Below, piece after piece: positions 22,504 through 61,087 of a DNA stretch of 64,000 nt; position 1 is the stretch's first letter, and every line of letters starts with the position of its first letter. Source of the stretch: a bacterium (GTDB lineage Bacteria; Patescibacteriota; Microgenomatia; JAMCZE01); the NCBI GenBank assembly GCA_021836035.1, contig JAKBJL010000004.1:131841-195840 (forward strand), in the 5' to 3' direction. The notes below the pieces were generated by a model that saw only the letters and a program-made list of their open reading frames with translations, did no database searches and was not told where the DNA came from. The translations under genes and the position numbers were made by a program.

Positions 22504-22505
22504 AT

Positions 22506-24359: not shown

Positions 24360-24360
24360 T

Positions 24361-25260: not shown

Positions 25261-25365
25261 ACGAATTATTCACAAATAGGTAATATACAAATCTAGGTAA
25301 AATACAAATACTTTGCAAATACAAATTTGTTAATTTGTATATTCCCACTGGCAAGAATTCGTTAC

Positions 25366-27719: not shown

Positions 27720-27837
27720 AAGGCGCCTCTGCTAATATTCTACTGCAAACGTGCACTTTTAATAAATATGTGGGGTGGCAGCCTAACCGATAAATATTCG
27801 GCGATTGGGCTAAAGCGTCCCGCACATTTTGCGTTCA

Positions 27838-27910
27838 GGACCCGTAGTGTAGCGGCTAACACGCTGCCCTGTCACGGCAGAGATCACCGGTTCGAATCCG
27901 GCCGGGTCCG
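27838..27910 (+). tRNA. tRNA-Asp (anticodon GTC)
   Basis: Hand-folded: acceptor GGACCCG/CGGGTCC, anticodon stem CTGCC/GGCAG with loop CTGTCAC, T-loop TTCGAAT and discriminator G. Confidence 0.8.
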
Positions 27911-28020
27911 CGAAATGTTTCGGGATAACATCTTTTCGCGCGTCCCCACAGATTTAACTGCTGAAACACTCCTGCCTGTTTGACTTTCTGCCCCTTATTT
28001 ATTTCTGCCTTGAAAGGAGG

Positions 28021-30121: not shown

Positions 30122-30685
30122 ATGGTTGTTTTTATCGATGAATCGGGGACCAATAAGCATGAAGGACACGCAACGATGGCAGTGGTGTATGTTGAAGTAG
30201 TCAACAGAGAAAAGTTTGAAAAGGGCTTTTCCGACGCTCTTCAGGAGGTAGATATAGCGGAATTCCACTGGGCCGATCAGGGCTGGAAAGTGCGCCGCAA
30301 GTTTTTCGAGAAAGTCTTCTCCTTAGACTTCTTTTTTAAGGTGGCTGTCTTTAAAAATCCAGCCCACCCGGAAAAGATGATGGAGATTGTTTTCCAGCAC
30401 TTAATTACAGAGAAAAATATTCGGTGGATATTTATCGACGGCAAGAAGTCCCGGCGCTATGAGAATGAGTTTAAAAACGTTCTACGTTCTAAGGATATAA
30501 CCGTCAAGAAGTTGAAAACGGTTCGTAGTGAATCTTCTTATTTTGGTGTCCAGTTAGCCGACGCTCTGGCTGGGCTGATGCGCTATTTAGAGTACAATCC
30601 GGGCGCCGAAGATGCCAAACAAATGGTTTCAAAGCTGCAGAGATCTAAAAAGCTGTTTGCAAAATATATTTTCTCCGGTAAATAA
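30122..30685 (+). CDS. DUF3800-family protein
   Basis: The N-terminus MVVFIDESG matches the characteristic DUF3800 start (x-x-YIDESG). Confidence 0.5.
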   Translation: MVVFIDESGTNKHEGHATMAVVYVEVVNREKFEKGFSDALQEVDIAEFHWADQGWKVRRKFFEKVFSLDFFFKVAVFKNPAHPEKMMEIVFQHLITEKNIRWIFIDGKKSRRYENEFKNVLRSKDITVKKLKTVRSESSYFGVQLADALAGLMRYLEYNPGAEDAKQMVSKLQRSKKLFAKYIFSGK

Positions 30686-31337
30686 AACCTTCCAGAAATA
30701 TAAAAGCCCCGCGGAATGCGAGGCCAGTTAATCCAGCTAGATTGCCTTGCGGCAAACTTTCTCACACGGAGATTTGTCGCTGGTAACTTGTTGACTGTAT
30801 GTTACCACAAAAGTCAAGGAAAAACAACCGCAACTTGAGGCAAAAAAGAGTCGGTCTTGGCTATCCGCACACATACCGACTCCTTATACTGGTATATTAC
30901 CAAAAAACCAAGAGTTATCCACGCCAAAAATAGCCTCGCGATTTGCGAGGCCAGTTAAGTAAGTAGCTTATTTCTAAGCTCGTCCGCACGGGCCCTTGTC
31001 CCTACCAACCTAAGGAAGAAAGACAAATTATTGTTGATATGATTTCAACAATTAATTATTAGAAAATTTATTTAAGGTGCGAATACGTTCGATCTCCGGC
31101 ATGCTTCTCCCAAATTGGTAAGGATCGTCCTGGGCCGGCCCAACTATTCTCTAGTCTTTCCCGGGACAACACTCGTCTCTTTTGTGAAAAGATCATGACC
31201 AAAAGTCATTTTCCCCTAACTTAGGTGCGCATGGATAATGGTGCTGAGATTCGATCAAAAATGAGAGGATTTTTACGGGCCAGGCTGCTTAGCCATATTT
31301 ACAATCGGCCTTTCGGGCCAGATATGAATGGCAAGTT

Positions 31338-43983: not shown

Positions 43984-44838
43984 TTGTCTATATATTACTT
44001 ATACAAGTATAAGGAGAGAAACAATATAAAAGCTGTTAAGGAACAAAAAAATATGAAGACTCCCCCTAAACTAAATCCCAGACTTGAAGAGATCCTCCTT
44101 CTAATTTACCGATTCCGATTTCTAACTACTTCTCAAATTCAAATCCTTCTTAATCATAAATATCACAGCCGTGTCAATCTCTGGCTAAATCAATTAACCG
44201 CTAGAAATTATCTCAAGCGCTACTATAACTTAAAATTTGCCGGTGAGCCAGCTTTATACTCTTTGGGAACTGCCGGAAGAAAATATTTCAAAACCCACAA
44301 AGAAATTAACAGAATAAAATTGTCGCTTCTTGATAGGGTTTGGACGGAGTACCGTAATTCCTCCCAATTTAAGCGTAACTGCCTGTTGCTGGCTGATATT
44401 TATATCTCCCTTTTAAGTTTAGCTAATAAAGCAAAAGCCAAGCTGGGTTTTTATTCCAAAGTCGATCTTTTCGGCATGAAATTTATGGTTTTGCCCGAAC
44501 CATCGTGTTATTTTTCCCTGGAAGACCAAAACGGCGTAACCAAACGCTATTTTCTGGATATCTTTGACTACTTTGTTCCCAAAGACCTTTTTAAACGGAT
44601 TAAAAAATACCTCTACTACTTTGAAAAACGCTACTGGCAGGACCATACCGACAAAACCTTCCCGGAGATAATCCTGGTCTGTCCCAATAAAGCGGCAAGA
44701 ACTTATCTGGAGAAAACCATCAGGGGCAACCTTGAAGATAAAGATTATTCCCTAACATTTTACTTGGCCTTGACAGAAGATATTCAGCAAAAAGGATTAA
44801 ACAGACAGGTATTACAAAAAGTAGAAATTCAATATTAA
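43984..44838 (+). CDS. replication-relaxation (Replic_Relax) family protein, putative relaxase/mobilisation protein
   Basis: An N-terminal wHTH-like LNPRLEEILLLIYRFRFLTTSQIQILL is typical of the Replic_Relax family. It sits directly downstream of the coupling ATPase. Confidence 0.5.
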   Translation: MSIYYLYKYKERNNIKAVKEQKNMKTPPKLNPRLEEILLLIYRFRFLTTSQIQILLNHKYHSRVNLWLNQLTARNYLKRYYNLKFAGEPALYSLGTAGRKYFKTHKEINRIKLSLLDRVWTEYRNSSQFKRNCLLLADIYISLLSLANKAKAKLGFYSKVDLFGMKFMVLPEPSCYFSLEDQNGVTKRYFLDIFDYFVPKDLFKRIKKYLYYFEKRYWQDHTDKTFPEIILVCPNKAARTYLEKTIRGNLEDKDYSLTFYLALTEDIQQKGLNRQVLQKVEIQY

Positions 44839-45931: not shown

Positions 45932-46714
45932 ATGAAAAGAACTTTACTTACATCCCGGGATTCAGCTATTCTTGAGGAAGCTTTGGCTAAATTCGGGAAT
46001 ATTGTGACAACCCGCGATCTTTACAGCATCCTTAAAGACGCCTCAAAAGCTCAAGCTTTAAATATCATTAGCAGGTTAGCCAAAAGAGGCTGGTTAGTTC
46101 GTATAAAGCACGGTACTTATAGTATTGCAGATTTAACTTCGCGGGGTTATTTAGATGCTTCACAGTTGGTAGTTGCCCAAACAATTTGTAGCAATTCCTA
46201 TGTGACTATGGAGGCGGCGCTCGGTTATCACGGTATGTTTGACCAGTTATTAAGTACCATAACCTCAGTTTCTCTTGCTCAAATACGAACAACTAATTCC
46301 GGCAGCAGCAACTACCATTATATCTCGACGCAAAATCACTTCTTTTACGGTTTTGACGAGGTAACTATCGAAGGAAAACAAGTAAAAATTGCCACAATTG
46401 AAAAAGCCCTCATCGATCTTATTCAGTTTAATCGATCAATATACTCGGTCGATTTAGTTATCGAAAAAATGCAAACTTATAAAGATAAAATAAATTTCAA
46501 TCGGCTGGCGAGCTATTTAGAAAAATCCACAACCGCAACTACGCGTATATTCGGGTATATTTTTGATCTGCTTGGGATAAAAAGTTCCAGTCTTGATAAT
46601 ATAGTCAAAGAAGATACAAGTACGACATATCTTTCCAAAGACAGCGGGGTGTATCAGGCGAAATGGAGGTTATATATAGATAAATATTTTGACAAATATT
46701 CACAAAGTGCATGA
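45932..46714 (+). CDS. AbiEi-family antitoxin-like protein (type IV TA / abortive infection)
   Basis: An N-terminal wHTH (SRDSAILEEALAKFGNIVTTRDLYSIL) plus a C-terminal domain. It overlaps by 4 nt with a downstream AbiEii-type gene. Confidence 0.55.
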   Translation: MKRTLLTSRDSAILEEALAKFGNIVTTRDLYSILKDASKAQALNIISRLAKRGWLVRIKHGTYSIADLTSRGYLDASQLVVAQTICSNSYVTMEAALGYHGMFDQLLSTITSVSLAQIRTTNSGSSNYHYISTQNHFFYGFDEVTIEGKQVKIATIEKALIDLIQFNRSIYSVDLVIEKMQTYKDKINFNRLASYLEKSTTATTRIFGYIFDLLGIKSSSLDNIVKEDTSTTYLSKDSGVYQAKWRLYIDKYFDKYSQSA

Positions 46715-47475
46715 ATACCACTGTTCTTAGCCGGCAACAGTTAACGATAATTAACAGGAAAACATTAAGATACCCGCTTCATATTGCGGAAAAGGATTAT
46801 TTTCTAGCTTTTGTCATGCAGATTATTTCCAGATCAACTTTAGGGCAAAGTTTGGTGTTTAAAGGTGGCACCGCTTTACACCACTGTTTTTTAAATCAAT
46901 ATCGCTTCTCCGAAGACCTGGATTTTTCCGCTAATAGGTCTCCGGTATCACTTGATCGGGTGCGGACAATGTTTGCCGGAGTTGATTGCTTAACTATTAA
47001 AAAAGACTATCTGTCAAATGCCACAATTAAAATTGAAAAACTGCAGTACACTGGACCATTAATTCAACCCAATTCCCTTAAAGTAGAAATTGATTTTCTT
47101 CAGGATGTACTTTTACCTTCGAAATCCATGAAATATCAAAATGTTTGGGGAATTGATTTTAAAGTCAATGCTATGGACCAAAAAGAAATTTGCGCCGAAA
47201 AAATACGCGCCATGAGCGACCGTGCCCGCTATCGTGATTTTTATGATTTATACCTCCTTTTCGAAAAATACCAACCTGATATACATGAAATAATAGAGTA
47301 TGTTAAACAAAAAGAAATCAGGCGTCCCATTACCAAAGAAAATATTATTAATAACTGGAAAGTTGTTAACTCTCAAAAAGTGCAAGAAATGAGCCGGATT
47401 TATTTCTCAAAAGATGTAGCTGATACACGGATAAAAGCAATGATTGATATGCTTCCGTTCACAACAATAGACTAA
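46711..47475 (+). CDS. AbiEii/AbiGii-family nucleotidyltransferase toxin (DUF1814)
   Basis: Signature LVFKGGTALHHCFLNQYRFSEDLDFS (KGGTAL...RxSxDLDF). Confidence 0.7.
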   Translation: MNTTVLSRQQLTIINRKTLRYPLHIAEKDYFLAFVMQIISRSTLGQSLVFKGGTALHHCFLNQYRFSEDLDFSANRSPVSLDRVRTMFAGVDCLTIKKDYLSNATIKIEKLQYTGPLIQPNSLKVEIDFLQDVLLPSKSMKYQNVWGIDFKVNAMDQKEICAEKIRAMSDRARYRDFYDLYLLFEKYQPDIHEIIEYVKQKEIRRPITKENIINNWKVVNSQKVQEMSRIYFSKDVADTRIKAMIDMLPFTTID

Positions 47476-48237: not shown

Positions 48238-48828
48238 ATGATATCCATGGATAATGATTTTATATTATCTCTTTATCGCCGGCCGGAAACCGTTTTTAGT
48301 GTTGATGAGATCGCCCAGCTTTTTCCCCATCTATCAACGGAAAGCTTGCGTAACCGTCTCTACTATTTCAGTAAATCCGGCAAGCTGAAAAGACTTCATA
48401 CCGGAATTTATGCCAAAGAGGGCTATAATAACTTTGAACTAGTTAATAAACTGTACAAGCCTTCCTATATCAGTCTGGAAACCGTTCTTAGTCGTGGCGG
48501 AGTCATCTTTCAGTATTACGAGACCATCTTTGCCGTTTCTTATGTTACCCGGGAGGTCCGGTTAAACAACTTGGGGATACAGTATCGCCGGGTAAAAGGT
48601 CCTGTTTTAACAAACTTGACTGGAATTAATCGGGAAAACGGTTACTTTATCGCTTCATTGGAGCGGGCTTTCCTCGATGCCATTTATGTCTACAAAAACT
48701 ATCACTTTGATAATTTAAGAGGCCTTGATTGGGATAAGGTAGCTGTTTTTAAAACAATTTATAACAACGCCATTCTGGAAAAGAAAGTTGAGGAGTATTA
48801 TCAGACTTTTAAAGAAGAAAATGCTTAA
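48238..48828 (+). CDS. AbiEi-like antitoxin (second copy, divergent sequence)
   Basis: 196 aa with an N-terminal HTH-like region, a C-terminal domain, and an overlapping downstream AbiEii-type gene. Confidence 0.5.
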   Translation: MISMDNDFILSLYRRPETVFSVDEIAQLFPHLSTESLRNRLYYFSKSGKLKRLHTGIYAKEGYNNFELVNKLYKPSYISLETVLSRGGVIFQYYETIFAVSYVTREVRLNNLGIQYRRVKGPVLTNLTGINRENGYFIASLERAFLDAIYVYKNYHFDNLRGLDWDKVAVFKTIYNNAILEKKVEEYYQTFKEENA

Positions 48829-49525
48829 TATTGATTTACATCGTAATATGGAAATTTCCATATTAAAAGCAATTTATGCTGATCCTTTTTTACGCAATAT
48901 TTTAGGATTTAAAGAAGGAACAGCGGCGATGCTTTTTTACGATTTACCGCGATTTTCCGTTGATCTCGATTTTAATTTGCTCGACGAGAATAAACAATAC
49001 GAAGTTTTTGAGAAAATAAAAAAGTTGCTTTTAAACTTCGGGGTACTTGATGATGCTTCCGATAAAAAAAACACGCTTTTTTTTCTTTTAACTTACCAAA
49101 AAGGGGAAAGAAAATTGAAAATAGAAATCTCCAAAAGGCCGCTGCAGTTTGTTTACCTACCGAAAAATTATTTAGGTATTTCCATGCTGGCTATGCAGGA
49201 AAAGGACATGCTACCCGCTAAACTATCAGCTCTTTTAACCAGACGGAAGTTTGCGGCCCGGGATATGTATGATTTGTGGTTTTTCCTAAAAAACAACTGG
49301 CCGATAAATGAAAATATCCTTAAGCAGAATACCGATTTATCGGTTAAAGAAGCTTTCATGGAAGCCCAAAAAAAGATTGCGGCGGTTAAAAAAAGCGAGA
49401 TGTTGTCCGGTATAGGGGATTTACTGGATAATAAACAGAAATCCTGGGTAAAGGAAAAACTTCGTGATGAATTGATCTTTCAGTTGAAATTGCACTCACA
49501 AAACTATCAAAATAAAAGTGACTAA
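48821..49525 (+). CDS. AbiEii-family nucleotidyltransferase toxin (second copy)
   Basis: FKEGTAAMLFYDLPRFSVDLDFN. Its ATG at 48821 overlaps the upstream stop in ATGCTTAA, so the pair is probably translationally coupled. The ORF track starts at 48788. Confidence 0.65.
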   Translation: MLNIDLHRNMEISILKAIYADPFLRNILGFKEGTAAMLFYDLPRFSVDLDFNLLDENKQYEVFEKIKKLLLNFGVLDDASDKKNTLFFLLTYQKGERKLKIEISKRPLQFVYLPKNYLGISMLAMQEKDMLPAKLSALLTRRKFAARDMYDLWFFLKNNWPINENILKQNTDLSVKEAFMEAQKKIAAVKKSEMLSGIGDLLDNKQKSWVKEKLRDELIFQLKLHSQNYQNKSD

Positions 49526-49539: not shown

Positions 49540-49704
49540 CTACCGTAGATTAAAACCGCATTTTTCTACAGGCTGAAAACCCGCCTTTTGACGGCCGGTT
49601 TGACCTTTGGGCGGATATTCCCAGGCTTTTTTAAATCCCAACTTACCATAGAAGTCGATAACTTTCTCAAAATCTGGAACATGAAGTTCGAAGATGACGT
49701 CAAA
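49540..49704 (-). pseudogene. start-less N-terminal fragment of a VOC/glyoxalase-family gene
   Basis: Minus-strand frame FDVIFELHVPDFEKVIDFYGKLGFKKAW... (VOC motif) with no start codon. Its tail overlaps repeat element X copy B. Confidence 0.35.
49553..49625 (+). repeat. repeat element X copy B (5' half conserved, 3' half diverged)
   Basis: aaaaccgcatttttctacaggctgaaaacccgccttttgacggccggtttgacc shares about 50 nt with copy A, and then diverges. Confidence 0.4.
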
Positions 49705-49718
49705 TTAAGCCAGCCTAC

Positions 49719-50349: not shown

Positions 50350-51513
50350 ATGGAACAAACTAGTCCTTTAGCAAACCCAGTAATACCTCCCCAGGCGCCG
50401 CTTAATCCAACGGTCAACTCTTCATCCCCAAACAAACGCGTTTTAATTATTCTATTGGTAATCTTGCTGGTGGCCTTATCTTCCTTAGCTGCCTATCTTT
50501 TTGTTAAATCACAGGCTCCGTCCCAAAAGCCAACAATTGCTACATCTCCATCAGTCCAAGCAACACCTACTCCGGGCCCGGTGGCAGATTGGAAAACCTA
50601 TACAAACTCTTCATTTGGTTTTTCATTCCGATATCCCGCCGACTGGAATGCAGAATGGGACAATCAAGTAACTGTTAAGAACGGGGATGGAAATTACGCG
50701 TTAGTTATTATCCCCTCAAATAATTCAAAGCATTTGTCGCTAAAAGACTACGTCACAACTGCTCCATATACCAGTCTTCACGAGGATCATCGGCTGACAT
50801 TGTCTCAGTTTAATTCAGCTGAAAATATATTTATAAATACAATACCTGCTATAAAAACACAGGAGGTATCAGGAGGAATAGCCGGAACCTCCGAAAATAT
50901 TTATTTAGTAAAAAATAATACCTTCCTTTTTATCAGCTATCCGGCTAAGAATAATTCATACTTTTCTAATTCGGCTCAAAATTATCAGATTGTCCAACAA
51001 ATCCTCTCCACTTTTAAATTTACAGATCAAAATCAGGCAACCAATACCTCAAATTGGAAAACGTATACAAACGTAAGCTCCGGCTTTTCCGTCAACTATC
51101 CATCAGATTATTTTACCTATAAAGACCCACTGGTTGATTTCTCGGTGGCAACGAAGGCACCTCAGGGGGGAAATGGAATCAAAAACTCTGCTCCCAAGGA
51201 TATTTGGCTCGATATACAAGTTAGCAAAAATACAACAAACACTTCGCTGGATGCATATATTACCCAACTAAATGCTTCTTCTTTAAAAAGAATGCCAACG
51301 ACAATTGGTGGTATTGCTGGTGATAAGCTTAGCTATATGATGCAAGTTTTTTGCGCCGGTACGACCTGCACACCGGTGTACCTATATGAAGGATTAGTTT
51401 TACATAACGGCAATATCTACCAAATTAGAATGTCTTCGTTAGACAAATCGTCACTTGATGCAAATAATGCAATGTTTGATCAAATCCTCTCCACTTTTAA
51501 ATTTACGCAGTAA
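50350..51513 (+). CDS. secreted tandem-domain protein of the 'NWKTY...STFKFTQ' family
   Basis: A TM/signal segment and a PT-rich linker precede two repeats. The first contains DWKTYTNSSFGFSFRYPADW and ends QQILSTFKFTDQ; the second contains NWKTYTNVSSGFSVNYPSDY and ends DQILSTFKFTQ. Confidence 0.45.
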   Translation: MEQTSPLANPVIPPQAPLNPTVNSSSPNKRVLIILLVILLVALSSLAAYLFVKSQAPSQKPTIATSPSVQATPTPGPVADWKTYTNSSFGFSFRYPADWNAEWDNQVTVKNGDGNYALVIIPSNNSKHLSLKDYVTTAPYTSLHEDHRLTLSQFNSAENIFINTIPAIKTQEVSGGIAGTSENIYLVKNNTFLFISYPAKNNSYFSNSAQNYQIVQQILSTFKFTDQNQATNTSNWKTYTNVSSGFSVNYPSDYFTYKDPLVDFSVATKAPQGGNGIKNSAPKDIWLDIQVSKNTTNTSLDAYITQLNASSLKRMPTTIGGIAGDKLSYMMQVFCAGTTCTPVYLYEGLVLHNGNIYQIRMSSLDKSSLDANNAMFDQILSTFKFTQ

Positions 51514-51539
51514 TTTAGAGATCTCATTTAACTTCCGCA

Positions 51540-51635
51540 GTCGACTACAAATGTATTCTTTTACCGGCTTAAACCCGCCTTTTGACAGATCATTTAAACC
51601 CTATATAACGAAAAGGCAGGACAGGACGAAGAGAG
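51540..51635 (+). promoter_or_regulatory. repeat element X copy C: TTGACA-N16-TATAAC promoter + CAGGACAGGACGAAG leader upstream of S51 peptidase operon
   Basis: ccggcttaaacccgccTTTTGACAgatcatttaaaccctaTATAACgaaaagGCAGGACAGGACGAAG. Confidence 0.5.
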
Positions 51636-51731
51636 AAAAAGTATTTTCGAGGATCTTCAGTTATAAAGCTTTTGATGGAAAATACTCGAACGTATTACGA
51701 TTGATAAATGTAATTATAGTAAAATGTATCT

Positions 51732-52787
51732 GTGAAGTTATTATTTTTAACCTCTGTCGGATTACCTCCAGAAACCAGAGAATATTTTTTAAAGGAACTT
51801 CCCAAAAAACCCGAGGAAATGAAAGTGGCTTTTATTCCGACAGCCGCTGATCCGGAGGAAAACAAAGGGTTTGTCAGGGCAGCCTACGATGAATTGGTAG
51901 AACTTAAATTTCCCGTTATCCAAGTTGATCTGAAAGAATCAAAAGAGAAAGTCCGAACGAAGTTGGAAAAAGCGGATATTATTTACATTAACGGCGGCAA
52001 TACTTTTTACCTTTTAGATTGGGCTCGAAAAAGCGGCTTGGATACATATCTTCCGAAGCTAATTAATAATGGAAAAGTATATCTTGGAGTTAGTGCCGGC
52101 AGTATTTTAGCGGGACCGGATATTGCCATTTCCGGTTGGGACCCGTCATGGGATAAAAACGATTATGTCTCGGATACAACCGGTTTAAACCTTGTACAGT
52201 TTGCAGTCTCTCCGCATTATACGGAAAAAGAAAGACAGGTGTTGGAAAAAGAAGGAAGAAAAGTAACCTTTCCGGTAATTGCTATAAGTGACGAGCAGGC
52301 GATTCTAGTTAAAGATGGAAGCTGGAAAGTAGTTGGGAAAGGGAAACCGGAATTTTATGGTGCGAAGTTTTCAAATGATGATGATTTTTACCGTCTACTG
52401 GAAAGCTTAACAGATAACGAGTGGAATACTAGAGTTGATGATATGTGGACGGTCAAGAATGTAGTAGCTCATTTAGTCGGCTGGGAAGAAGAACTCTCTA
52501 AATTATTACCTCAGATTTGGAAAAATCAGGAAAAACCATGGTTTACAGAAACTAACAACTGGGATGAGCTTAACGAAAAGAGCACAGATAAGTTTAAAGG
52601 CTTCACTCCTAGACAACTCCTAGACGAATGGTATAAATGGCAAGGAAAATTAATGAAAGAGGCAGAAAAGATTGGAGAAAATAATATGCGATCACGGCCG
52701 GATTTATTTGGTTGGTGGTTTGAAGAGGGAGAAGAAAGTCACTATCAAACGCATTATAAACAAATAAGGAAAGCTTTAAATAAATGA
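51732..52787 (+). CDS. peptidase S51 (PepE/cyanophycinase-like) domain fused to DinB_2/YfiT-like domain
   Basis: The N-terminal half has GGNTFYLL and GVSAGS (Ser nucleophile context). The C-terminal half has WTVKNVVAHLVGWEEE, a DinB-type helical bundle. Confidence 0.5.
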   Translation: MKLLFLTSVGLPPETREYFLKELPKKPEEMKVAFIPTAADPEENKGFVRAAYDELVELKFPVIQVDLKESKEKVRTKLEKADIIYINGGNTFYLLDWARKSGLDTYLPKLINNGKVYLGVSAGSILAGPDIAISGWDPSWDKNDYVSDTTGLNLVQFAVSPHYTEKERQVLEKEGRKVTFPVIAISDEQAILVKDGSWKVVGKGKPEFYGAKFSNDDDFYRLLESLTDNEWNTRVDDMWTVKNVVAHLVGWEEELSKLLPQIWKNQEKPWFTETNNWDELNEKSTDKFKGFTPRQLLDEWYKWQGKLMKEAEKIGENNMRSRPDLFGWWFEEGEESHYQTHYKQIRKALNK

Positions 52788-53161
52788 AGGGCACAAGGAT
52801 TAATCCATTATTAGTTGTAAAAGACATCGAAAAGTCAGTCGATTTTTACGAGAACCTATTGGGTTTTAAGAAGAACACGGTTTTAAAAAATGGCGATAGC
52901 AGTTTGCGGTATGTGGATTTTACCGTTGGCACCTCAGTTTTAATGCTGGTTCCAGAAAGCACCAGAGCAGAAATTCCAGATAAAGGAAACGGGGTAGAGC
53001 TTTACATTGATATTGATGAGGATATTAAAGCTCTTTTTGAATGTTTAAAAAGTAAAGGCATGATCTTTATAAAAGAACTTTACGAAACTCCCTGGCAAAC
53101 CTATCAATTTCATTTTAAAGATCCGGACGGATATGTGTTAATTGTTTCACAACAAGCATGA
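52784..53161 (+). CDS. VOC-family protein (glyoxalase/bleomycin-resistance fold)
   Basis: 125 aa with N-terminal VVKDIEKSVDFYENLLGFKK; 4-nt overlaps with both neighbours. Confidence 0.65.
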   Translation: MKGTRINPLLVVKDIEKSVDFYENLLGFKKNTVLKNGDSSLRYVDFTVGTSVLMLVPESTRAEIPDKGNGVELYIDIDEDIKALFECLKSKGMIFIKELYETPWQTYQFHFKDPDGYVLIVSQQA

Positions 53162-53643
53162 CTTGGAGTAGATATAAAACCAACACTATCGACGAATTTA
53201 CCCTGTCTTTAGAAACCCTTGCTTTAGAAATTGCAAAGATAGCAGAACAAAATAGTAAAAAGTATATGATCGGGGGTGGGTGGGCACTAGAACTTACGCT
53301 GGGTAAAATAACCAGAAACCACCATGATATCGATTTCTTTCCATTAAAAGATGATGTCGTTTGGTGGCGGAATTGGTTTGAAAGCCAAGGCTTAAAAACG
53401 AAAGATGAACAAACTAATGAAGGTTTAATCATTAAGGTCTTAGGTAACAAGAAAGAAACGCTTGTGGATATGGTGCCATCAGATTTGGGCAATGTTATGT
53501 CCGTTATTTACAAAGGCATAAAAATCTTTATCGATGATCCCCAAAAAATCCTGGACGAGAAGCTACGTAATGCTAAAGAAGGAAAGCCATTAAGACGCCA
53601 GGATCTTCACGATATTTCTATAATGGGGAGAAAACTAAAATAG
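53158..53643 (+). CDS. Lnu/ANT(2'')-like nucleotidyltransferase (PF10706-like)
   Basis: 161 aa. MIGGGWALELTLGKITRNHHDIDFF parallels the LnuA/ANT(2'') core GGWGVD.L.GKQ.R.H.DID. Confidence 0.5.
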   Translation: MTWSRYKTNTIDEFTLSLETLALEIAKIAEQNSKKYMIGGGWALELTLGKITRNHHDIDFFPLKDDVVWWRNWFESQGLKTKDEQTNEGLIIKVLGNKKETLVDMVPSDLGNVMSVIYKGIKIFIDDPQKILDEKLRNAKEGKPLRRQDLHDISIMGRKLK

Positions 53644-54297
53644 TTACTCTTTACCTTCCCATTCAGAGATAAACCTACGGGCAAATTCTTCTACAAACTT
53701 GAAGCGTTCCTTTGCATATTTTCTTCCCAGTCTGGTATGAAAGTTTGTGGGCTGCATTTTGGGATGGGAAATCTTGTACAGCAAATAATTGATTGCTGAT
53801 TTATTGTTATCTTCCAGTTTGTTTGAGGGTTTTCCGTCATAAATAGGTCTTCTATACTTTTTTGATTGGAATGAGCTTCCAATAATTCGGGCCACATCAA
53901 TAGCCCCTAAAGCGTCAAGGTAATCCGCATCCTGAAGAATTTTGGCCTCGGTAGTTTCGGGAACCCGGTCCATGCTTTTTCTATGAACCAATATCGCATG
54001 GCAAACTGGTTCGATCTTTTCTTTAGGAAAGTTGATCTTATATAAGATTTCCCGGGCAATATCACTGCCTGCCTTTGCGTGATCTTCGACTTCTCCTCTG
54101 TCTTCTAACCCACGGGCAACATCAAAAAGAAGTGTGGCCGCCTCAAGAATTTCAAGGTCTGCTTCCTCATCCTGGCCAATTTGCTTTGCTAATCTCTCCA
54201 CCCGGAAAACATGGTTAATATCATGGGAGAAGTCGTTATTTAGCTCCTCGTAATATTTACTGGTTAGGTTTAGAATCTTATCCTTGAAATTGCTCAT
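53644..54297 (-). CDS. HD-domain phosphohydrolase
   Basis: HVFRVERLAKQI ... ILVHRKSMDR ... DADYLDALGA (H..HD..D pattern). Confidence 0.6.
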   Translation of the reverse strand: MSNFKDKILNLTSKYYEELNNDFSHDINHVFRVERLAKQIGQDEEADLEILEAATLLFDVARGLEDRGEVEDHAKAGSDIAREILYKINFPKEKIEPVCHAILVHRKSMDRVPETTEAKILQDADYLDALGAIDVARIIGSSFQSKKYRRPIYDGKPSNKLEDNNKSAINYLLYKISHPKMQPTNFHTRLGRKYAKERFKFVEEFARRFISEWEGKE

Positions 54298-54389
54298 ATA
54301 TCAATACTACTTATTCTATATCGATCTGTTATTGGTAACTAGATCTTAATTTCTTGTAATTTTCTTCGTTGGATAATCCAAATAATTCC

Positions 54390-54482
54390 ATACTTTTCTA
54401 ATTCGGCTCAAAATTATCAGATTGTCCAACAAATCCTCTCCACTTTTAAATTTACACAGTAATTTAGCGATCTCATTTAACC
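54390..54482 (+). pseudogene. 3' remnant of a 'STFKFTQ'-family gene (duplicate of parts of 50350..51513)
   Basis: The segment is about 95% identical to 50951..51024 joined to 51507..51530. It encodes ...NSAQNYQIVQQILSTFKFTQ* without an upstream start. Confidence 0.55.
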
Positions 54483-54580
54483 TCCGCAGTCGACTACAAA
54501 TGTATTCTTTTACCGGCTTAAAACCACCTTTTGACAGGTCCTTTAAACCCTATATAACGAAAAGCAGGACAGGACAAAAT
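54483..54580 (+). promoter_or_regulatory. repeat element X copy D (near-identical to copy C)
   Basis: ccggcttaaaaccaccTTTTGACAggtcctttaaaccctaTATAACgaaaagCAGGACAGGACAAAA. Confidence 0.5.
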
Positions 54581-54729: not shown

Positions 54730-54879
54730 AAGGAATTTAACTCGGAACGAGCTGGCAAGATTAGCAAAAATGGACAGAAGCGGGTTAACCGATATCGAAA
54801 GCGGTAAAAATAACATTACACTGCGGACCCTTCTTAAAATTGCCCGCGCTCTTAATGTTAAGGTAAGTGAATTAGTATA
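54730..54879 (+). pseudogene. 5'-truncated XRE/Cro-type HTH regulator
   Basis: The frame NLTRNELARLAKMDRSGLTDIESGKNNITLRTLLKIARALNVKVSELV* is a typical XRE HTH core. It lacks helix 1 and any in-frame start after the upstream stop. Confidence 0.35.
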
Positions 54880-55042
54880 AAGGGAGTTTGATCTATTAAA
54901 ATATCTTGCAAATGGCCGATAAATAGTACTATATTAGCCACATGACCACGATTAGCGATTATCTGTGTGTCAGGAACCAACCGTCATAGGTTGGTTTTTT
55001 TGTTTAAAAATTGAAATTTAAACGGAAAGGGGGTGAAAAAAT

Positions 55043-55878: not shown

Positions 55879-56226
55879 ATGAAAAGAATCACCGCTTTTT
55901 GTGTATTAACTCTGCCCTTCTTGCTTCTTTCAGGAAGTCCCGCCTTCGCCGCCTCCGGAGATGTCACTAAAATCCAAACATTTATCCAAAGCGTTATTCA
56001 AGTCCTGGTTACCCTGGCCGGACTTTTATCGGCCGGATTTTTTGTTTGGGGAGGCGTCGGGTACATAACCAGTTCCGGCAATCCTGAAAGCCTGGATAGA
56101 TCCAAAAAGACCATCTTTTATTCCGCTATCGGTCTGGCAATCGTGCTTGGAGCTTTTGTGCTGTCCAATATCGTCACGCAGCTGGCCGGATCCGCTTTCG
56201 GAACAACAAGTACAACGACGCCTTAA
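55879..56226 (+). CDS. T4SS pilin-like protein (VirB2/TrbC-like)
   Basis: 115 aa with a signal peptide ending AFA and then two hydrophobic helices separated by GGVGYITSSGNPESLDRSKKT, the VirB2-type hairpin topology. Confidence 0.5.
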   Translation: MKRITAFCVLTLPFLLLSGSPAFAASGDVTKIQTFIQSVIQVLVTLAGLLSAGFFVWGGVGYITSSGNPESLDRSKKTIFYSAIGLAIVLGAFVLSNIVTQLAGSAFGTTSTTTP

Positions 56227-56246
56227 AAATTTGGCTGTCTAAATAT

Positions 56247-57548
56247 ATGATGAAAAAGTTAGTCTTTTTCGGCTCACTGTTTAGCCTCTTGCCTGCTGTC
56301 TTCGCCCCTTCTGTTTCGGCCGCAACTACCAGCTCCGAAATTACCCAATATACTAACGACACCTTAAGTATCATTACCGTTATCGCCTCGGCGGCCGCCG
56401 TCTTTTTCCTGATTAAAGGCGGTTATTTATATATCGCTTCAACCGGCAACCCCGAAGTTATTACCGAAGCCAAAAAAACCATAAAAAACGCCATAATCGG
56501 GCTGATACTGGTTTTAGGGGCAAGTTTACTAATTTCCCTTTTTAAAGGCGCCTTAAACTCCTCATCTGCCGCCGGATCTAATCCGGCTATAACTATTTCC
56601 CAAATAGAACCGGCCAAACCAACCGGGGGACTGACCCAGGTGCTTATTGATGCCGTCTCCGGATTTATGCAAAACATCGTGGAATCGGCCACCAGGCCGA
56701 TCGTCGACGGGATCATCGGTTATCTGACCACCACCCCGAGCTTGTTAGGCAATAAGGTCGTCTTTAATTTCTGGCTGGTAATCCTGGGAATCACCGATTC
56801 CCTCTTTGCCGTCATTGTGGCCCTCTTGGGGCTTCATTTCATGAGCGCCTCAACCTTTGGCTATGATGAGATGGAACTATCCAAACTGCTGCCCAAAATC
56901 GGCCTGGCTTTTTTGGGCGCCAATGTTTCCCTCTTTCTTGCCGATTATGTCGTTTTCAGCTGCAACGTTTTAGTTAAGGCGGTTATCGCCGCCACCGGAG
57001 GGCTAAGTAACGCCTGGGTGGTTAACGCCATTAACCTCCCTGCGCTTTCCGCGGGGACGACTCCCCTAATTACCCTGATTTTTTTGATTCTGTTTTTAAT
57101 CATTGCCATAGTTTTGCTTTTTATGTATATCGGCCGGCTGATAGTAATTTCCCTGGGGGCTGTTTTGTCCCCCTTAATCTTTCTGCTCTCCATTATCCCC
57201 AAACTGTCCGATTTTGCCGAGATTGCCGCCAAAAGCTACTTTGTGACGGTATTTATGGTCTTTGTCCATGTGGTGCTAATCCAGCTGGCCTCCTCGTTTC
57301 TAAGCTTGCCTTCCGGTTCCGCTAACTCCCTGGTCTCCATTGCCGTGGCCATCGGCTTATTTCTGACCCTTCTTAAAGCCCCCCAGATTATGATGCAGAT
57401 GGTTTTTTACAATTCGGCCAACCACGTGATGCGCAAAATCGGCCACGAGATAACCAATGTCATCTCCACCGATAACAGCGCGGCGGCTTCCCGGCAAACG
57501 TCTATAAACACGGCCTTCAAGGCCCCCGGAAAGGCGGTTGCGCCATGA
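56247..57548 (+). CDS. VirB6/TrbL-like polytopic membrane protein with N-terminal pilin-like module
   Basis: The N-terminal 100 aa are paralogous to the preceding pilin-like gene (GGYLYIASTGNPEVITEAKKT), followed by at least 6 TM helices. Confidence 0.5.
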   Translation: MMKKLVFFGSLFSLLPAVFAPSVSAATTSSEITQYTNDTLSIITVIASAAAVFFLIKGGYLYIASTGNPEVITEAKKTIKNAIIGLILVLGASLLISLFKGALNSSSAAGSNPAITISQIEPAKPTGGLTQVLIDAVSGFMQNIVESATRPIVDGIIGYLTTTPSLLGNKVVFNFWLVILGITDSLFAVIVALLGLHFMSASTFGYDEMELSKLLPKIGLAFLGANVSLFLADYVVFSCNVLVKAVIAATGGLSNAWVVNAINLPALSAGTTPLITLIFLILFLIIAIVLLFMYIGRLIVISLGAVLSPLIFLLSIIPKLSDFAEIAAKSYFVTVFMVFVHVVLIQLASSFLSLPSGSANSLVSIAVAIGLFLTLLKAPQIMMQMVFYNSANHVMRKIGHEITNVISTDNSAAASRQTSINTAFKAPGKAVAP

Positions 57549-58060
57549 GAACGACCGTTATCCCGGCCCAGATCACGACAGTTGAAGACAAGATCGCGGG
57601 CAACCTGAACTTAACCCAGATTTTAATTCTTCTCATACCCGTATTTTGGACAACCGTCGTTTACGCTTTCTTTGCCCCGGGGGTAAAACTTGTCTGGTAT
57701 AAATTCCCGCTGATTTTGGCGGTGCTTTTTATCTGTTTAGCCCTGGCGATCCGGCTTAAGGGAAAGGTCGCTTTAGAGTGGCTCATGGTTCTTTTAAAGT
57801 ATCGCTTAAGGCCGAAATACTATCTGTTTGACAAAAACAGCCCCTACCTTCGCCCCCGGGACCTGCCGGTATTTGAAAAGAAGCCTGTATTTAACAAACC
57901 AAAAGTCTCAAAAATTGAGGCTCGGCCGCCGGCTGGCGATTTCCCACCGGGAGAAATAATTAAACTGGACAATCTGCTTGTCCAACATAACTACACCTTA
58001 AGTTACAAAGCGGGAAGGAGGGGAGGTATCCGTGTGGCCCTGGAAAAAATTCCGAAATAA
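57545..58060 (+). CDS. VirB3/PrgI-like small membrane protein
   Basis: 171 aa with two adjacent TM helices, located immediately upstream of the VirB4 reading frames. Confidence 0.4.
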   Translation: MRTTVIPAQITTVEDKIAGNLNLTQILILLIPVFWTTVVYAFFAPGVKLVWYKFPLILAVLFICLALAIRLKGKVALEWLMVLLKYRLRPKYYLFDKNSPYLRPRDLPVFEKKPVFNKPKVSKIEARPPAGDFPPGEIIKLDNLLVQHNYTLSYKAGRRGGIRVALEKIPK

Positions 58061-58652
58061 AGCCAGCTCCAGACAACAAATCCAGGTTAAGGAGGTCAAG
58101 GACTCCATCCTGGTCCTGCCCAAGAACCAGTACCGGATAATTCTGGAAACCTCCTCCTTTAACTTTGAGCTCAAAAGCGAGGAGGAACAGGACGTTTTGG
58201 TTGATTCCTTCCAGAATTTCCTCAACTCCCTTCCCTGCCAACTGCAAATTCTTATCCGTATCCGGGATGTGGATATTGACCGCTACCTCGAGCAGATCTC
58301 CCGGACGAAGCATGATGAAAAAGAGCAAGTTTACAAAGAGCAGATAAGCAACTATTGCCTTTTTGTAAAAGGGATCGTCTCGGGCAATAAAATCCTCTCC
58401 CGGCGCTTTTATGTGATTATCCCCTACCGCCACCCCGCAGGGGCAAACGACTTTAACCTTGCCAGGGAGCAGATAAATCTAAACCGCGATATTGTGATAC
58501 GGGGTCTTGAGAAGCTTGGCCTGAAAGCCCGGCAACTGGCCAGCCTGGAAATTCTTGACCTTTTTTACAGTTTCTACAATCCCCACCAGACTAAAACCCA
58601 AAAGCTAAAAGGGCAAACCCTGCAAATGCTTTTGCAAAATAATGATGTTTAA
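58032..58652 (+). CDS. virB4: VirB4/TraE N-terminal domain (separate ORF; gene split by +1 frame change)
   Basis: The N-terminal-domain-like sequence (ILETSSFNFELKSEEEQDVLVDSFQNFLNSL) ends 11 nt inside the start of the ATPase ORF, which is in the +1 frame. Confidence 0.45.
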   Translation: MWPWKKFRNKASSRQQIQVKEVKDSILVLPKNQYRIILETSSFNFELKSEEEQDVLVDSFQNFLNSLPCQLQILIRIRDVDIDRYLEQISRTKHDEKEQVYKEQISNYCLFVKGIVSGNKILSRRFYVIIPYRHPAGANDFNLAREQINLNRDIVIRGLEKLGLKARQLASLEILDLFYSFYNPHQTKTQKLKGQTLQMLLQNNDV

Positions 58653-60462
58653 TCTCTTTGTTAAAGCCAAAAAGAAAATCAAAAATCCCCAGATTTCCCG
58701 GAAAGATTTTCTTCAAAAGTCTTGGGAATTTACTTTTGGCGAGCAGGACCAGGTTGACCTTATTTCCTACTCCGGATTAAAAGAAGAACCCTCATACCTG
58801 CAAGTGGGGGATAAATATGTTCGTACAGTATTTATCTCCGGCTACCCCTACGTCGCCTCTACCGGCTGGCTAAGCATGCTGATAAACTTTAACCATAATA
58901 TCGATATCTCTTATCATATTGAGCAGGTAAACCCGATCTACGCCCTGCCAAAACTTAACCGGAAGATTACCGAGCTGGAATCAACCAAAAGAACCATGCT
59001 CAAGCAGGGAAAAGTCATCGGATCGGAAGTTACCGACCCGTTGGAATCGGCCATGGAGCTAAAAGATAAGATTCAAAGAGGCCAGGAAAAACTCTTCCAG
59101 GTATCAATTTACATGACGGTCACCGCCGACAGCCTAAACGACTTAAACAAAATCACCACCCTTCTGGAAACCGTCATGTCGACCCGCCTCTTTTATACAA
59201 AAACGGCCGTCTTCCAGCAGTTGGAGGGCTTGCAGTCCATTCTTCCCCGGGCGGAGAACCTGCTGGCCCAGAAACGAAACCTGGACAGCTCTTCAGCCGC
59301 CCTGACATTTCCGTTTGTGTCCTCCGAACTGGTCCAGGAATCGGGAATTTTGTATGGAATCAATAAATCCAATAACTCCCTGGTGATCGTGGACCGTTTC
59401 AGCTTAAATAACGCCAACTCCATTATCTTTGCCCAGTCCGGATCGGGCAAAAGCTATACGGCCAAAGTGGAAATTCTTCGCCAGCTGATGCAGGGCACCA
59501 AAGTCATCGTCATCGATCCGGAGCGGGAATATAAACAGCTGGCTTCCTCCGTTAAGGGAACCTATATTAAGCTTTCCGTCAAATCCAGGGAGAAAATTAA
59601 CCCGTTTGATTTTTCCGTCAGTGCCTATTCCGGGGAAAATGACCTGGCTGAGCATATCCAGGACTTAACCGAAATTGTCTCCCTTATGGCGGGCGGTCTT
59701 AATGCCGAGGAAAAGGCGGTTGTCGACAAAGCCCTCCTGCAAACCTACAAAGACCACGGTTACCTCATGTATTACCGTTACACGCCCAAAGAAAATCGGG
59801 ATAAGCACGGCCGAAAACCCGGAAAGAAAAGTATTCCCCGACTGATAGACTTTTACCAAACCCTTAAATCCCTGAAGCAAAAAGACCTCTGCAACCGTCT
59901 GGAACGGTTTGTAAAAGGGTCGCTCTCTTCGGCTTTTGATTCCCAAACCAATATAGAGCTTAATAACCGGCTGGTCATCTTTGACCTTAAAGACCTTAAT
60001 GAATCTTTAAGACAAATTATGATGCTGGTGGTGGCCAACTTTGTCCATTCCCGGGTCAAAACCAAACCGCAAAAAAGAATCCTGGTCATCGACGAGGGAT
60101 GGATGCTTTTGCAACAGGAAGAAAGCGCCCGGTTTATCTCCAACCTGGTCAGGCGGGCCAGAAAATACTACCTGGGAGTCACTCTTATTTCCCAGCAGGC
60201 TAGCGATTTTCTAACCCAGGAATACGGCCGGGCTATCGCTTCCCAATCCGCCTTAAGAATTCTTATGAAGCAGGATACGACCACCATTAAGAAAGTTACC
60301 GAGGAGTTCGACCTGAGCGGGTATGAAGCGCACTTTTTATTAACCTGTGACCGGGGAGAAGCTTTAATTATTGCCGACCAGAACCACGTGGCCCTCAAAG
60401 TGGTGGCCTCGGAAAAAGAACACCCGCCCTTAACCACCGACCCGAGAGAAATTTATCTTTAA
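58642..60462 (+). CDS. virB4: VirB4/TraE-family T4SS ATPase (C-terminal NTPase part)
   Basis: Walker A AQSGSGKSYTAK, VIDPEREY and Walker B RILVIDEGWMLL. Confidence 0.8.
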   Translation: MMFNLFVKAKKKIKNPQISRKDFLQKSWEFTFGEQDQVDLISYSGLKEEPSYLQVGDKYVRTVFISGYPYVASTGWLSMLINFNHNIDISYHIEQVNPIYALPKLNRKITELESTKRTMLKQGKVIGSEVTDPLESAMELKDKIQRGQEKLFQVSIYMTVTADSLNDLNKITTLLETVMSTRLFYTKTAVFQQLEGLQSILPRAENLLAQKRNLDSSSAALTFPFVSSELVQESGILYGINKSNNSLVIVDRFSLNNANSIIFAQSGSGKSYTAKVEILRQLMQGTKVIVIDPEREYKQLASSVKGTYIKLSVKSREKINPFDFSVSAYSGENDLAEHIQDLTEIVSLMAGGLNAEEKAVVDKALLQTYKDHGYLMYYRYTPKENRDKHGRKPGKKSIPRLIDFYQTLKSLKQKDLCNRLERFVKGSLSSAFDSQTNIELNNRLVIFDLKDLNESLRQIMMLVVANFVHSRVKTKPQKRILVIDEGWMLLQQEESARFISNLVRRARKYYLGVTLISQQASDFLTQEYGRAIASQSALRILMKQDTTTIKKVTEEFDLSGYEAHFLLTCDRGEALIIADQNHVALKVVASEKEHPPLTTDPREIYL

Positions 60463-60469
60463 TAAATGA

Positions 60470-61087
60470 ATGAATCAGCTAAAAATCGGGTTGCTCTTAT
60501 GGTCATATAAGCGGGAATTATCCTACGTTTTACTGGCCTTCCTAATTGTTCTTCTCCTTCCGGTTATTGCCGTGATTATTCTTATGAATACCGGTATTAA
60601 TATCGTTTCTGATAAATTAGCTACGGTTGACAGCAAAACCCAGGCAATTGAAATCCACGATCCCAAAGACGGCTCGATAATTAAAAAGATTAAGCCTGTC
60701 ATCTCCTGGCCGGTCGGAGGGGTTTATACCCTGGAATTTGGCCAGTCAGACCTGCCTTATGAGGTTCTCCATTCCGGGATCGATATTGCCAATCCGCAGG
60801 GTAAAGTCGGTGATCCCGTCCACCCGTTCATGGACGGAACGGTTATTTACGCCGGGGAAATTTGGTGGGGTTACGGAAAACATATAATTATCGATAATGG
60901 AAATAATATTACTTCGCTATACGGGCATCTGGATAAAATTTACGCCTATCCGGGACAACAGGTGACAATCAACGATGTTATCGGCAACGAAGGAACCTCG
61001 GGTTGGTCTACCGGGCCGCATTTGCATTTCCAAGTTAGTGTTTTTGGAATTCCGCTAAATCCGAGAACGTTTTTAAGATCAGGTTAA
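60470..61087 (+). CDS. membrane-anchored M23-family peptidoglycan endopeptidase (T4SS-associated cell-wall hydrolase)
   Basis: An N-terminal TM helix plus M23 motifs HSGIDIA (HxxxD) and GPHLHFQV (HxH). Confidence 0.8.
   Translation: MNQLKIGLLLWSYKRELSYVLLAFLIVLLLPVIAVIILMNTGINIVSDKLATVDSKTQAIEIHDPKDGSIIKKIKPVISWPVGGVYTLEFGQSDLPYEVLHSGIDIANPQGKVGDPVHPFMDGTVIYAGEIWWGYGKHIIIDNGNNITSLYGHLDKIYAYPGQQVTINDVIGNEGTSGWSTGPHLHFQVSVFGIPLNPRTFLRSG

Follow-up and report, generated by a model that had tools for sequence, protein, structure and literature searches.

Chromosomal type IV secretion systems (T4SSs), usually without a recognisable relaxase, have been described for Patescibacteria (PMC12102498). 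A locus of this kind lies in a 64,000-nt stretch of contig JAKBJL010000004.1 (assembly GCA_021836035.1, positions 131,841 to 195,840) from a bacterium of the Patescibacteriota (Microgenomatia; JAMCZE01), hereafter the window, and the present analysis concerns a block of four small genes within it. The block encodes a fusion of an S51 peptidase to a DinB-like domain, a VOC protein, a predicted nucleotidyltransferase (NTase), and, on the opposite strand, an HD-superfamily protein. With moderate confidence, we interpret the block as a mosaic, specific to this lineage, of small-molecule-handling genes that are independent of one another and lie in a variable spacer of the T4SS locus. All four genes are divergent members of superfamilies already known, and nothing in the block is categorically new.

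Comparison of the locus with the MPF-FATA-like T4SSs of Patescibacteria (PMC12102498) revealed that (i) the type IV coupling protein (T4CP), VirB2-like pilins, VirB6/TrbL, PrgI, VirB4, and an M23 peptidase lie within the chromosome here as they do there; (ii) the T4CP of the window is followed by a Replic_Relax protein; and (iii) the locus of the window is split by a 12-kb spacer of low guanine-plus-cytosine (GC) content, which holds toxin–antitoxin (TA) systems and the block.

The block proteins can likewise be compared with described relatives. The N-terminal 213 residues of the fusion protein and its Ser-His-acid residues resemble those of peptidase family S51 (Lmo0363, 3L4E; PepE aspartyl dipeptidase, 1FY2 and 6A4R; cyanophycinase), whereas the C-terminal DinB-like domain is absent from the 119 nearest relatives. 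This domain gives profile matches above the gathering score to the DinB/YfiT-like four-helix-bundle metalloproteins (DinB_2 and MDMPI_N, with ClbS/DUF1706 in the same clan), from which it differs in being fused to a peptidase; no close sequence relatives of it were found. The VOC protein is similar to Sh Ble (1BYL/1XRK) and other small VOC proteins (4HC5, 5UHJ, EhpR 3SK1, and the integron cassette protein 3GHJ) in being a single module of ~125 residues with Pro in place of the first His, but it matches the solved members of this group with E-values of only 1e-7 to 1e-3. The NTase shares the GGGW...DxD core and the two-lobed fold, over ~165 columns, with ANT(2'')-Ia (4WQK, 5KQJ) and LnuA (4FO1); it differs from them in its low identity (19–20%) and in belonging to a separate, rare subfamily. 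The HD protein is similar over its full length to the YedJ-like stand-alone HD proteins (Escherichia coli YedJ, 3GW7; 2PQ7; YpgQ, 5DQV). YpgQ of Bacillus subtilis is a Mn-dependent (d)NTP pyrophosphohydrolase with the ligands H29, H58, D59, and D124 (PMC8177086). The residue H58, a metal ligand in YpgQ, is replaced by Phe in the HD protein of the window and in all 16 relatives that were examined.

Packing and conservation of the four genes

The sequence-only reading on which this study follows up had described four open reading frames (ORFs), with a 4-nt overlap at each of the two plus-strand junctions (fusion/VOC and VOC/NTase) and with the HD gene converging on the other three. The ORF scan bore out this layout (Table 1), and 0 nt separate the stop codon of the NTase gene from that of the HD gene. 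The domain calls of that reading (S51 plus DinB_2, Glyoxalase/VOC, PF10706, and HD) also stood, as all of them scored above the Pfam cutoffs. The overlaps are common in this genome: 7 of the 34 same-strand junctions in the window are 4-nt overlaps, clearly unrelated gene pairs included. They are therefore a genome style and not evidence of coupling. In two loci of S51 relatives (L002 and L005), the S51 gene likewise has 4-nt overlaps with its neighbours, which are unrelated genes.

Genomic contexts were read for 3 loci of NTase relatives (~6 kb on each side) and for 21 loci of HD relatives (mostly short). The three NTase relatives (L008 to L010; 50%, 38%, and 35% identity) had no S51, VOC, or HD gene within ~6 kb on either side, and none of the 21 HD-relative loci had an adjoining NTase or VOC gene. 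The neighbours of the HD relatives were varied and included EEP nuclease, Nudix, and HAD genes. Only two parts of the four-gene neighbourhood were recovered in other genomes, namely S51...VOC in one locus (L005) and HD–S51 in three (L024 to L026); the block thus largely lacks a conserved neighbourhood, the outcome that the sequence-only reading had named as refuting it, and weak pairwise associations remain. Named homologues come from Shapirobacteria, Roizmanbacteria, and Gottesmanbacteria, which points to Microgenomatia, and all four window proteins are singletons when clustered at 90% identity. Because unrelated genes are packed here with such overlaps, the tight packing of genes with resistance-like Pfam names should not be read as a single-function operon.

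Several points weigh against a mosaic of independent genes. In L005, the S51 gene (70% identical) and the VOC gene (78.5% identical) occur in the same order as in the window, and in L024 to L026, which represent one lineage, an HD gene is directly followed by an S51 gene. Some non-random association among the genes of the block may therefore exist. The contexts were few (3 NTase and 21 HD loci), and a conserved unit may exist in other genomes. At the level of the individual parts, the candidate promoter upstream of the block, which lies in copy C of a repeat designated X, fails the strict −10 criterion of the generic promoter scan; the AlphaFold2 (AF2) model of the DinB half is helical with a predicted local distance difference test score (pLDDT) of 35–70, so that its fold is not confirmed by structure prediction; and the substitution F58 in the HD protein may mean that this protein is not a hydrolase at all.

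The pairwise associations would also be expected if the three plus-strand genes, perhaps together with the HD gene, formed a coherent detoxification pathway directed at one class of toxic compound, such as a peptide-nucleotide or aminoglycoside-like antibiotic produced by the host or by neighbouring organisms. The VOC protein would bind the compound, the S51–DinB protein would cleave or conjugate it, and the NTase would nucleotidylate it. Such a pathway would fit the tight packing behind one candidate promoter, the presence of antibiotic or xenobiotic resistance members in all four families, the S51...VOC order shared with L005, the HD–S51 adjacency in L024 to L026, and the fusion of a close NTase relative to a GNAT domain, which recalls bifunctional antibiotic-modifying enzymes. 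We nevertheless consider it unlikely. The unit is not conserved, and the NTase gene stands without its partners in L008 to L010. The HD relatives occur in varied housekeeping contexts; in L024 to L026 the HD gene itself occupies a housekeeping position, syntenic with 20–28.6 kb of the window. An unrelated 151-aa gene occupies the place between S51 and VOC in L005, and 4-nt overlaps are common between unrelated genes.

As an alternative, the sequence-only reading had proposed that the NTase and the HD protein form a signalling or defence module. The two genes adjoin with abutting stop codons, two NTase toxin systems of the AbiEi/AbiEii type are present in the island, the structural neighbours of the NTase include the MenT1 toxin, and distant PF10706 domains in leucyl-tRNA synthetase (LeuRS) hint at tRNA-end chemistry in the family at large. 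However, PADLOC reported 0 families for the four block proteins and four neighbouring proteins, and the pairing is not conserved: an NTase gene adjoins the HD gene in 0 of the 21 HD-relative loci, and an HD gene is present in 0 of the 3 NTase-relative loci. The two genes are convergent and hence not co-transcribed, and the HD protein belongs to a widespread YedJ-like family. A nucleotide-signalling, toxin–antitoxin, or anti-phage defence pair is therefore extremely unlikely.

The nucleotidyltransferase

The NTase matches PF10706 (Aminoglyc_resit) with 28.8 bits against a cutoff of 21, over residues 24–66 only (43 N-terminal residues). This region includes the motif GGGW..LGKITRNHHD57ID59, and a conserved D104 follows. 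The subfamily shows no variation at D57, D59, or D104, and the catalytic DxD is intact. An AF2 model built from a five-sequence alignment reached a pLDDT of 90. The best full-length PDB matches of this model in Foldseek were ANT(2'')-Ia (5kqj) and LnuA (4fo1), with template modelling (TM) scores of 0.64–0.65, a probability of 1.0, and 19–20% identity; the tRNA-NTase toxin MenT1 came next (TM 0.57). Taken together, the Pfam score, the fold, and the DxD...D residues place the protein in the PF10706 superfamily. The protein is most likely an ANT(2'')/Lnu-fold O-nucleotidyltransferase, as predicted from the model, with intact catalytic carboxylates.

The sequence-only reading of this protein as Lnu/ANT(2'')-like held for the family and the fold but not for resistance function as captured by the NCBIfam models, which scored 18–26 bits against cutoffs of at least 300: ANT(2'')-Ia 26.3 vs 350, LnuD 23.2 vs 325, LnuP 21.9 vs 300, LnuC 20.2 vs 300, and LnuAN2 18 vs 340. 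Sequence similarity to ANT(2'')-Ia is restricted to the ~40-residue GGGW...DxD core, which is nucleotide-binding, and the C-terminal (substrate) half of the NTase has no detectable sequence match to Lnu/ANT. The link to Lnu/ANT(2'') is at the superfamily and fold level only. The same reading had pointed to a length shared with LnuA; LnuA (PDB 4fo1) indeed has 161 residues, but the nearest NTase relatives have 175–188 residues, and the match is therefore coincidental.

A true Lnu/ANT(2'')-type lincosamide or aminoglycoside resistance enzyme, which would make the block a resistance cassette and was the leading idea of the sequence-only reading, is very unlikely on these results. The PF10706 match above the gathering score, the alignment of the GGGW..G..TR.H.DID motif with ANT(2'')-Ia, and the fact that ANT(2'')-Ia and LnuA are the best full-length Foldseek matches speak for it. 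Against it stand the resistance-model scores, the limitation of sequence similarity to the N-terminal core with the substrate half unmatched, and the TM scores at low identity, with MenT1 close behind. A further point against it is the distribution of the subfamily. An exhaustive profile search of 1.84 billion representatives returned 128 sequences at E <= 1e-3 and 5 at E <= 1e-30; on this sequence evidence, the subfamily is rare and environmental. No resistance phenotype is known.

The closest multi-domain relative of the NTase, P0127 (47% identity over 166 aa), carries a C-terminal GNAT acetyltransferase domain. This fusion resembles bifunctional antibiotic-modifying enzymes and therefore lends mild support to small-molecule or acyl-acceptor chemistry of the NTase. 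In addition, four proteins from outside the window (P0161, P0168, P0172, and P0188) are LeuRSs of the bacterial type with a PF10706-like domain directly after the CP1 editing domain. In P0161, which scores 877 bits with TIGR00396, a NUDIX domain follows the PF10706-like insert. A literature search for NTase insertions in LeuRS, within the library searched, found nothing.

The VOC protein

The VOC protein is a single module of the bleomycin-resistance/glyoxalase type. It matches the Pfam Glyoxalase family with E 1.7e-20 (74 bits vs a cutoff of 20.6) and has an N-terminal Ble-like match (PF22677). In the PDB search, its solved relatives included 4hc5 (9e-8) and Sh Ble 1xrk (6e-5), and the nearest ones comprise bleomycin, enediyne, and phenazine binding or resistance proteins (EhpR) as well as an integron cassette protein. 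All NCBIfam enzyme and resistance models scored far below their cutoffs (ble_Sh 23.5 vs 260, BLMA 17.7 vs 140). The protein does not qualify as a glyoxalase I, for which TIGR00068 gave 31.3 bits vs 120 and the H/E/H/E ligands are incomplete, with Pro8 at the first of them. By inspection, Pro8 occupies the position of the first metal-binding His of glyoxalase I. Because of this replacement of His by Pro, the protein is likelier to be a binder than a metalloenzyme; a metal-free binder that sequesters its ligand is the more likely prediction from the sequence than an enzyme that transforms it.

The HD-superfamily protein

The HD protein matches the Pfam HD family with E 2.3e-15 (57.4 bits vs a cutoff of 22), and its matches in the PDB were 2pq7 (3.5e-31), YedJ 3gw7 (8e-21), and YpgQ 5dqv (2e-10). 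It falls below the equivalog cutoff of PRK10119 (88.7 vs 286 bits). The sequence-only reading had called it an HD phosphohydrolase; membership in the HD family is upheld, whereas the H-D signature is not. The dyad is F58-D59 instead of H-D, and the H...HD...D metal signature is accordingly missing, although the protein keeps H25, H29, D59, D72-H73, H105, and D123/D125. The Phe of the dyad, within LLFD[VI]AR, is present in all 17 aligned sequences, that is, in the window protein and 16 relatives that are 55–83% identical (loci L011 to L028). The protein therefore represents a conserved atypical subfamily of the candidate phyla radiation (CPR), and hydrolase activity is not to be assumed.

A second HD gene of the window (28901–29542) was considered as a paralogue of the block gene (53644–54297) and proved unrelated. 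The contig of L026 is syntenic with 20031–28638 of the window (GatA-GatC-...-LemA-PolX-LysM), and after LysM that contig continues with a YedJ-like HD gene and an S51 gene, where the window has the unrelated HD-domain gene.

The S51–DinB fusion protein

The S51 half of the fusion protein matches Peptidase_S51 over residues 15–199 (E 4.8e-37, 128.1 bits vs a cutoff of 23.9) and gives a PDB sequence match to 3l4e (E 1.3e-22). The AF2 model of this half has a pLDDT of 95–98 and superimposes on 3l4e (Lmo0363) in Foldseek with a TMt of 0.86 and a root-mean-square deviation of 2.1 Å. An alignment of 44 S51 homologues shows no variation at S121 (in GVSAGS), H162, or D141. We infer that they form the triad S121/H162/D141, with D141 as the acid, and the peptidase is most likely catalytically active, as predicted from this Ser-His-Asp set. 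The protein misses the PepE equivalog cutoff of NCBIfam (70.6 vs 156 bits) as well as the cyanophycinase equivalog cutoff. Its nearest relative, P0002, is 78% identical to the S51 half over all 213 residues of P0002, and S51 homology stops at residue 213, which is the full length of P0002.

The DinB half begins 3–4 residues past this point. It matches DinB_2 over residues 217–319 (29.5 bits vs a gathering score of 24.8) and MDMPI_N (29.7 vs 24.2 bits), and it has a full-length match to DUF1706 below the cutoff (20.3 vs 24.2 bits). Foldseek of the fusion model returned S51 matches only and no DinB match, the word-index search found no homologues of the DinB half, and the PDB sequence search gave only noise. 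The half models poorly because it has no detectable close relatives. The DinB part has no His residues other than H247, H337, and H341, whose H...HxxxH spacing marks a putative metal site of a DinB-type domain. The pattern presumably resembles the His triad of YfiT. CPR bacteria are not known to have a low-molecular-weight thiol partner.

The sequence-only reading had flagged this architecture as unusual, and it was indeed found in the query only among the best 120 of 706 S51 homologues, whose architectures were examined. A literature search for S51–DinB fusions found nothing. In the nearest relatives (L002 and L005), the gene that comes after S51, which it too overlaps by 4 nt, encodes an unrelated 151-aa protein. 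This gene was considered as a diverged DinB gene, but it shows no similarity and has no Pfam hit. Another fusion was present among the same 120 homologues: in P0030, from Shapirobacteria, MGMT (PF01035) is fused to S51. Stop-loss or fusion variants of small S51 peptidases therefore recur in CPR genomes.

The junction reads TCAAATGATGATGATTTTTAC. ATG occurs three times in its frame +1 and TGA three times in its frame +2, and positions 52385–52389 are a T5 run. A change of T5 to T6 would give separate, overlapping genes for S51 (228 aa) and DinB (137 aa, MMMIFYRLL...). The junction is 100% identical in the ERZ27233565 and ERZ27233560 assemblies and in the independent Logan assembly of SRR13170412, and the fusion is therefore not an assembly artefact. 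It is real DNA, though it may be a recent single-base accident.

A recent 1-nt homopolymer slip that joined two overlapping genes, either neutral or as the first step of decay, and hence no evolved bifunctional enzyme, would be compatible with the mosaic reading, and we regard it as rather unlikely. The architecture is unique among the homologues examined and a singleton at 90% clustering, S51 homology ends at exactly the full length of P0002, the junction (ATGATGATGA plus T5) needs only T6 to give separate 228-aa and 137-aa genes, and pseudogene remnants lie nearby. Set against these points, key residues are kept in both halves (S121, D141, and H162; H247, H337, and H341), the 351 codons are open and identical in three assemblies, other S51 fusions such as the MGMT–S51 of P0030 exist, and the word-index search found no stand-alone relative of the DinB part to show an ancestor. 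The fusion architecture is new, but it is limited to a single population, and one indel suffices to explain it.

The repeats around the block

The repeat X, which the sequence-only reading had pointed out, is real: four copies occur, all on the plus strand, at ~47995, ~49549, ~51544, and ~54493, where 0 were expected by chance. Copy C carries a sigma-70-like TTGACA (51582–51587), a 16-nt spacer, and TATAAC (51604–51609), 122 nt upstream of the GTG start codon of the fusion gene. The region's best promoter match is that of copy A, with 11 of 12 consensus positions in TTGACA-16-TAAAAT; copy A precedes the second AbiEi/AbiEii pair. The generic promoter scan did not list copies C and D, because they lack the T that ends the −10 hexamer, and in the region as a whole it found promoter-like sites only as often as chance would produce them. 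The earlier statement that copy C drives the operon is therefore retained for the presence of the TTGACA-16-TATAAC element and not for its activity: transcription of the trio from copy C is plausible from the sequence but unproven.

Two other identities of X were considered and rejected. As an attC-like recombination hairpin or a structured RNA, X would be expected to fold, but the single-stranded DNA folds of the copies (z = −0.14, −0.81, +0.47, and +1.04) were no better than those of shuffled sequences, copy C being at +0.47 (not significant), and no Rfam family matches X. As a coding remnant, X would be expected to keep a frame, but six-frame translations have no consistent frame across the copies, which are put out of register by indels; a VOC pseudogene fragment adjoins copy B alone. 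The best reading of X is that of an intergenic, promoter-bearing module that became duplicated. Arrays of small genes (VOC, NTase, DinB, and TA) that are short, close to a promoter, and separated by a repeat bear a superficial likeness to integron cassettes and attC sites. X differs from attC in that (i) it has no fold (z −0.8 to +1.0), and the window yielded no integrase; and (ii) it contains a promoter-like motif and sits upstream, not downstream, of the accompanying genes. The region is accordingly no integron cassette array, as the X folds gave no attC-like hairpin and the scanned ORFs no integrase. In viral contigs, neither the X element nor NTase relatives were found.

A second repeat, a perfect direct repeat of 68 nt, brackets the block. 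Its left copy lies in the gene for a secreted two-domain PsbP_2-like protein, and its right copy is followed by a stop codon and then by X copy D. Both PsbP_2 domains of the 387-aa protein end in ILSTFKFT, and both 68-nt copies have near-identical X copies on their downstream side. The segment between them (51025–54388, 3364 nt) contains PsbP_2 domain 2, X copy C, the three-gene operon, and the HD gene. An independent, short-read Logan contig (L033) breaks inside the right copy, as expected for a true repeat. The arrangement suggests that the two-domain PsbP_2 gene arose from the same recombination that delivered the block.

Setting of the block in the T4SS locus

The features of the region are listed in Table 1. 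The block lies in a low-GC variable spacer between the T4CP/Replic_Relax genes and the pilin/VirB6/VirB4 genes; GC is 0.34–0.405 across 44–56 kb, which includes the block, vs 0.42–0.49 in the flanking T4SS genes.

Table 1. Coordinates of the block, its repeats, and the surrounding T4SS locus in the window.
Feature	Position	Strand	Description
T4CP	41335-43917		first gene of the T4SS locus order
Replic_Relax protein	43984-44838		directly after T4CP; followed by EamA
AbiEi/AbiEii pairs (two)	45932-47475 and 48238-49525		type IV TA; after EamA, in the same spacer
PsbP_2-like secreted protein, two domains	50350-51513	+	387 aa; Pfam PsbP_2; precedes the block
68-nt perfect direct repeat, left	50957-51024	+	end of PsbP_2 domain 1; 100% identity to right copy
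X copy C	51509-51625	+	non-coding intergenic module; candidate promoter of the three-gene operon
S51–DinB fusion ORF	51732-52787	+	351 aa; GTG start; ORF scan
S51 (PepE/Lmo0363-like) serine peptidase domain	51732-52370	+	residues 1-213 of the 351-aa fusion
Fusion junction	52371-52389	+	TCA-A ATGATGATG A TTTTT
DinB-like C-terminal domain	52380-52787	+	residues ~217-351
VOC gene	52784-53161	+	125 aa; ORF scan
NTase gene	53158-53643	+	161 aa; ORF scan
HD-superfamily gene	53644-54297	-	217 aa; convergent on the three plus-strand genes; ORF scan
68-nt perfect direct repeat, right	54389-54456	+	with stop to 54459; 3' remnant of a single-domain PsbP_2-type gene (...ILSTFKFTQ*)
X copy D	54458-54575	+	~90-95% identical to copy C; same TTGACA-16-TATAAC
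Pilins, TrbL/VirB6, PrgI, VirB4, M23 peptidase	55879-61087		after the block

The T4SS locus is preceded by housekeeping genes, namely RecJ, GatA/B/C, AsnB, PolX, tRNAs, PBP1, and alpha-2-macroglobulin. No integrase or recombinase by which an integrative and conjugative element could be delimited was present among the scanned ORFs of the window. The T4SS locus is thus chromosomal, amid housekeeping genes, with no integrase in the window, and the earlier description of the block as cargo carried by an element becomes uncertain.

Remnants of genes occur on both sides of the block. An N-terminal VOC fragment at ~49600–49715 on the minus strand, which has no start codon (…ELHVPDFEKVIDFYGKLGFKKAWEYPP…) and runs on into copy B of X, represents a second VOC gene that has decayed. 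An XRE-type helix-turn-helix gene has left a remnant of 36 codons (54770–54880, plus strand) downstream of copy D, and a good terminator-like hairpin follows 3' of it (54972–54999). The presence of the VOC fragment, the PsbP_2 3' end, and the XRE fragment in the spacer points therefore to gene turnover, and 44–56 kb is a gene-flux zone, not an evidently bounded mobile element.

Further features lie elsewhere in the window. A DUF3800 gene (30122–30685, plus strand) is followed by a DUF3800-II RNA motif (30722–30794, minus strand; RF02961, 67.7 bits). The gene for a bacterial alpha-2-macroglobulin of 2183 aa (31769–38320, minus strand) has a Hint/PT-HINT module inserted at residues ~1340–1472, and it is adjoined by a gene for a PBP1c-type transglycosylase/transpeptidase (38377–40809, minus strand).

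Proposed origin and role of the block

On the mosaic reading, the block would have arrived when a circular DNA with 68 nt of homology entered a single-domain PsbP_2 gene through a single (Campbell-type) crossover; alternatively, unequal homologous recombination would have left the same footprint. Joint transcription of the three plus-strand genes would probably start at the sigma-70-like promoter of copy C, and the HD-like gene would be transcribed convergently from a promoter of its own. The fusion could have formed by the loss of a single base in the T run between S51 and DinB. The products would most likely be four independent small-molecule-handling enzymes rather than the members of one pathway. 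By analogy with their families, their collective role is likely to be the tolerance or modification of exogenous toxic small molecules.

The repeats also allow a more specific interpretation, in which the repeat-bracketed segment is a cassette made mobile by homologous recombination at the X modules and the trio provides multi-mechanism resistance to antibiotics of the host or of neighbours; in a variant, suggested by the related domains in LeuRS and by the MenT-like fold, the NTase acts on tRNA 3' ends. We consider this interpretation quite improbable. If true, a mobile resistance cassette of this kind, in an episymbiotic CPR host, would be the first resistance island on record for the T4SS loci of Patescibacteria.

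As it stands, the block mainly illustrates the way in which unrelated accessory genes are packed, with overlaps of 4 nt, into compact CPR genomes. The conserved H-to-F replacement in the HD dyad and the PF10706-like domains in LeuRS are independent small leads. If the block protects against toxic small molecules, ultra-small episymbiotic CPR bacteria would carry exchangeable chemical-defence genes in their T4SS loci, and the block would offer a rare NTase subfamily and a natural S51–DinB fusion for enzymology.

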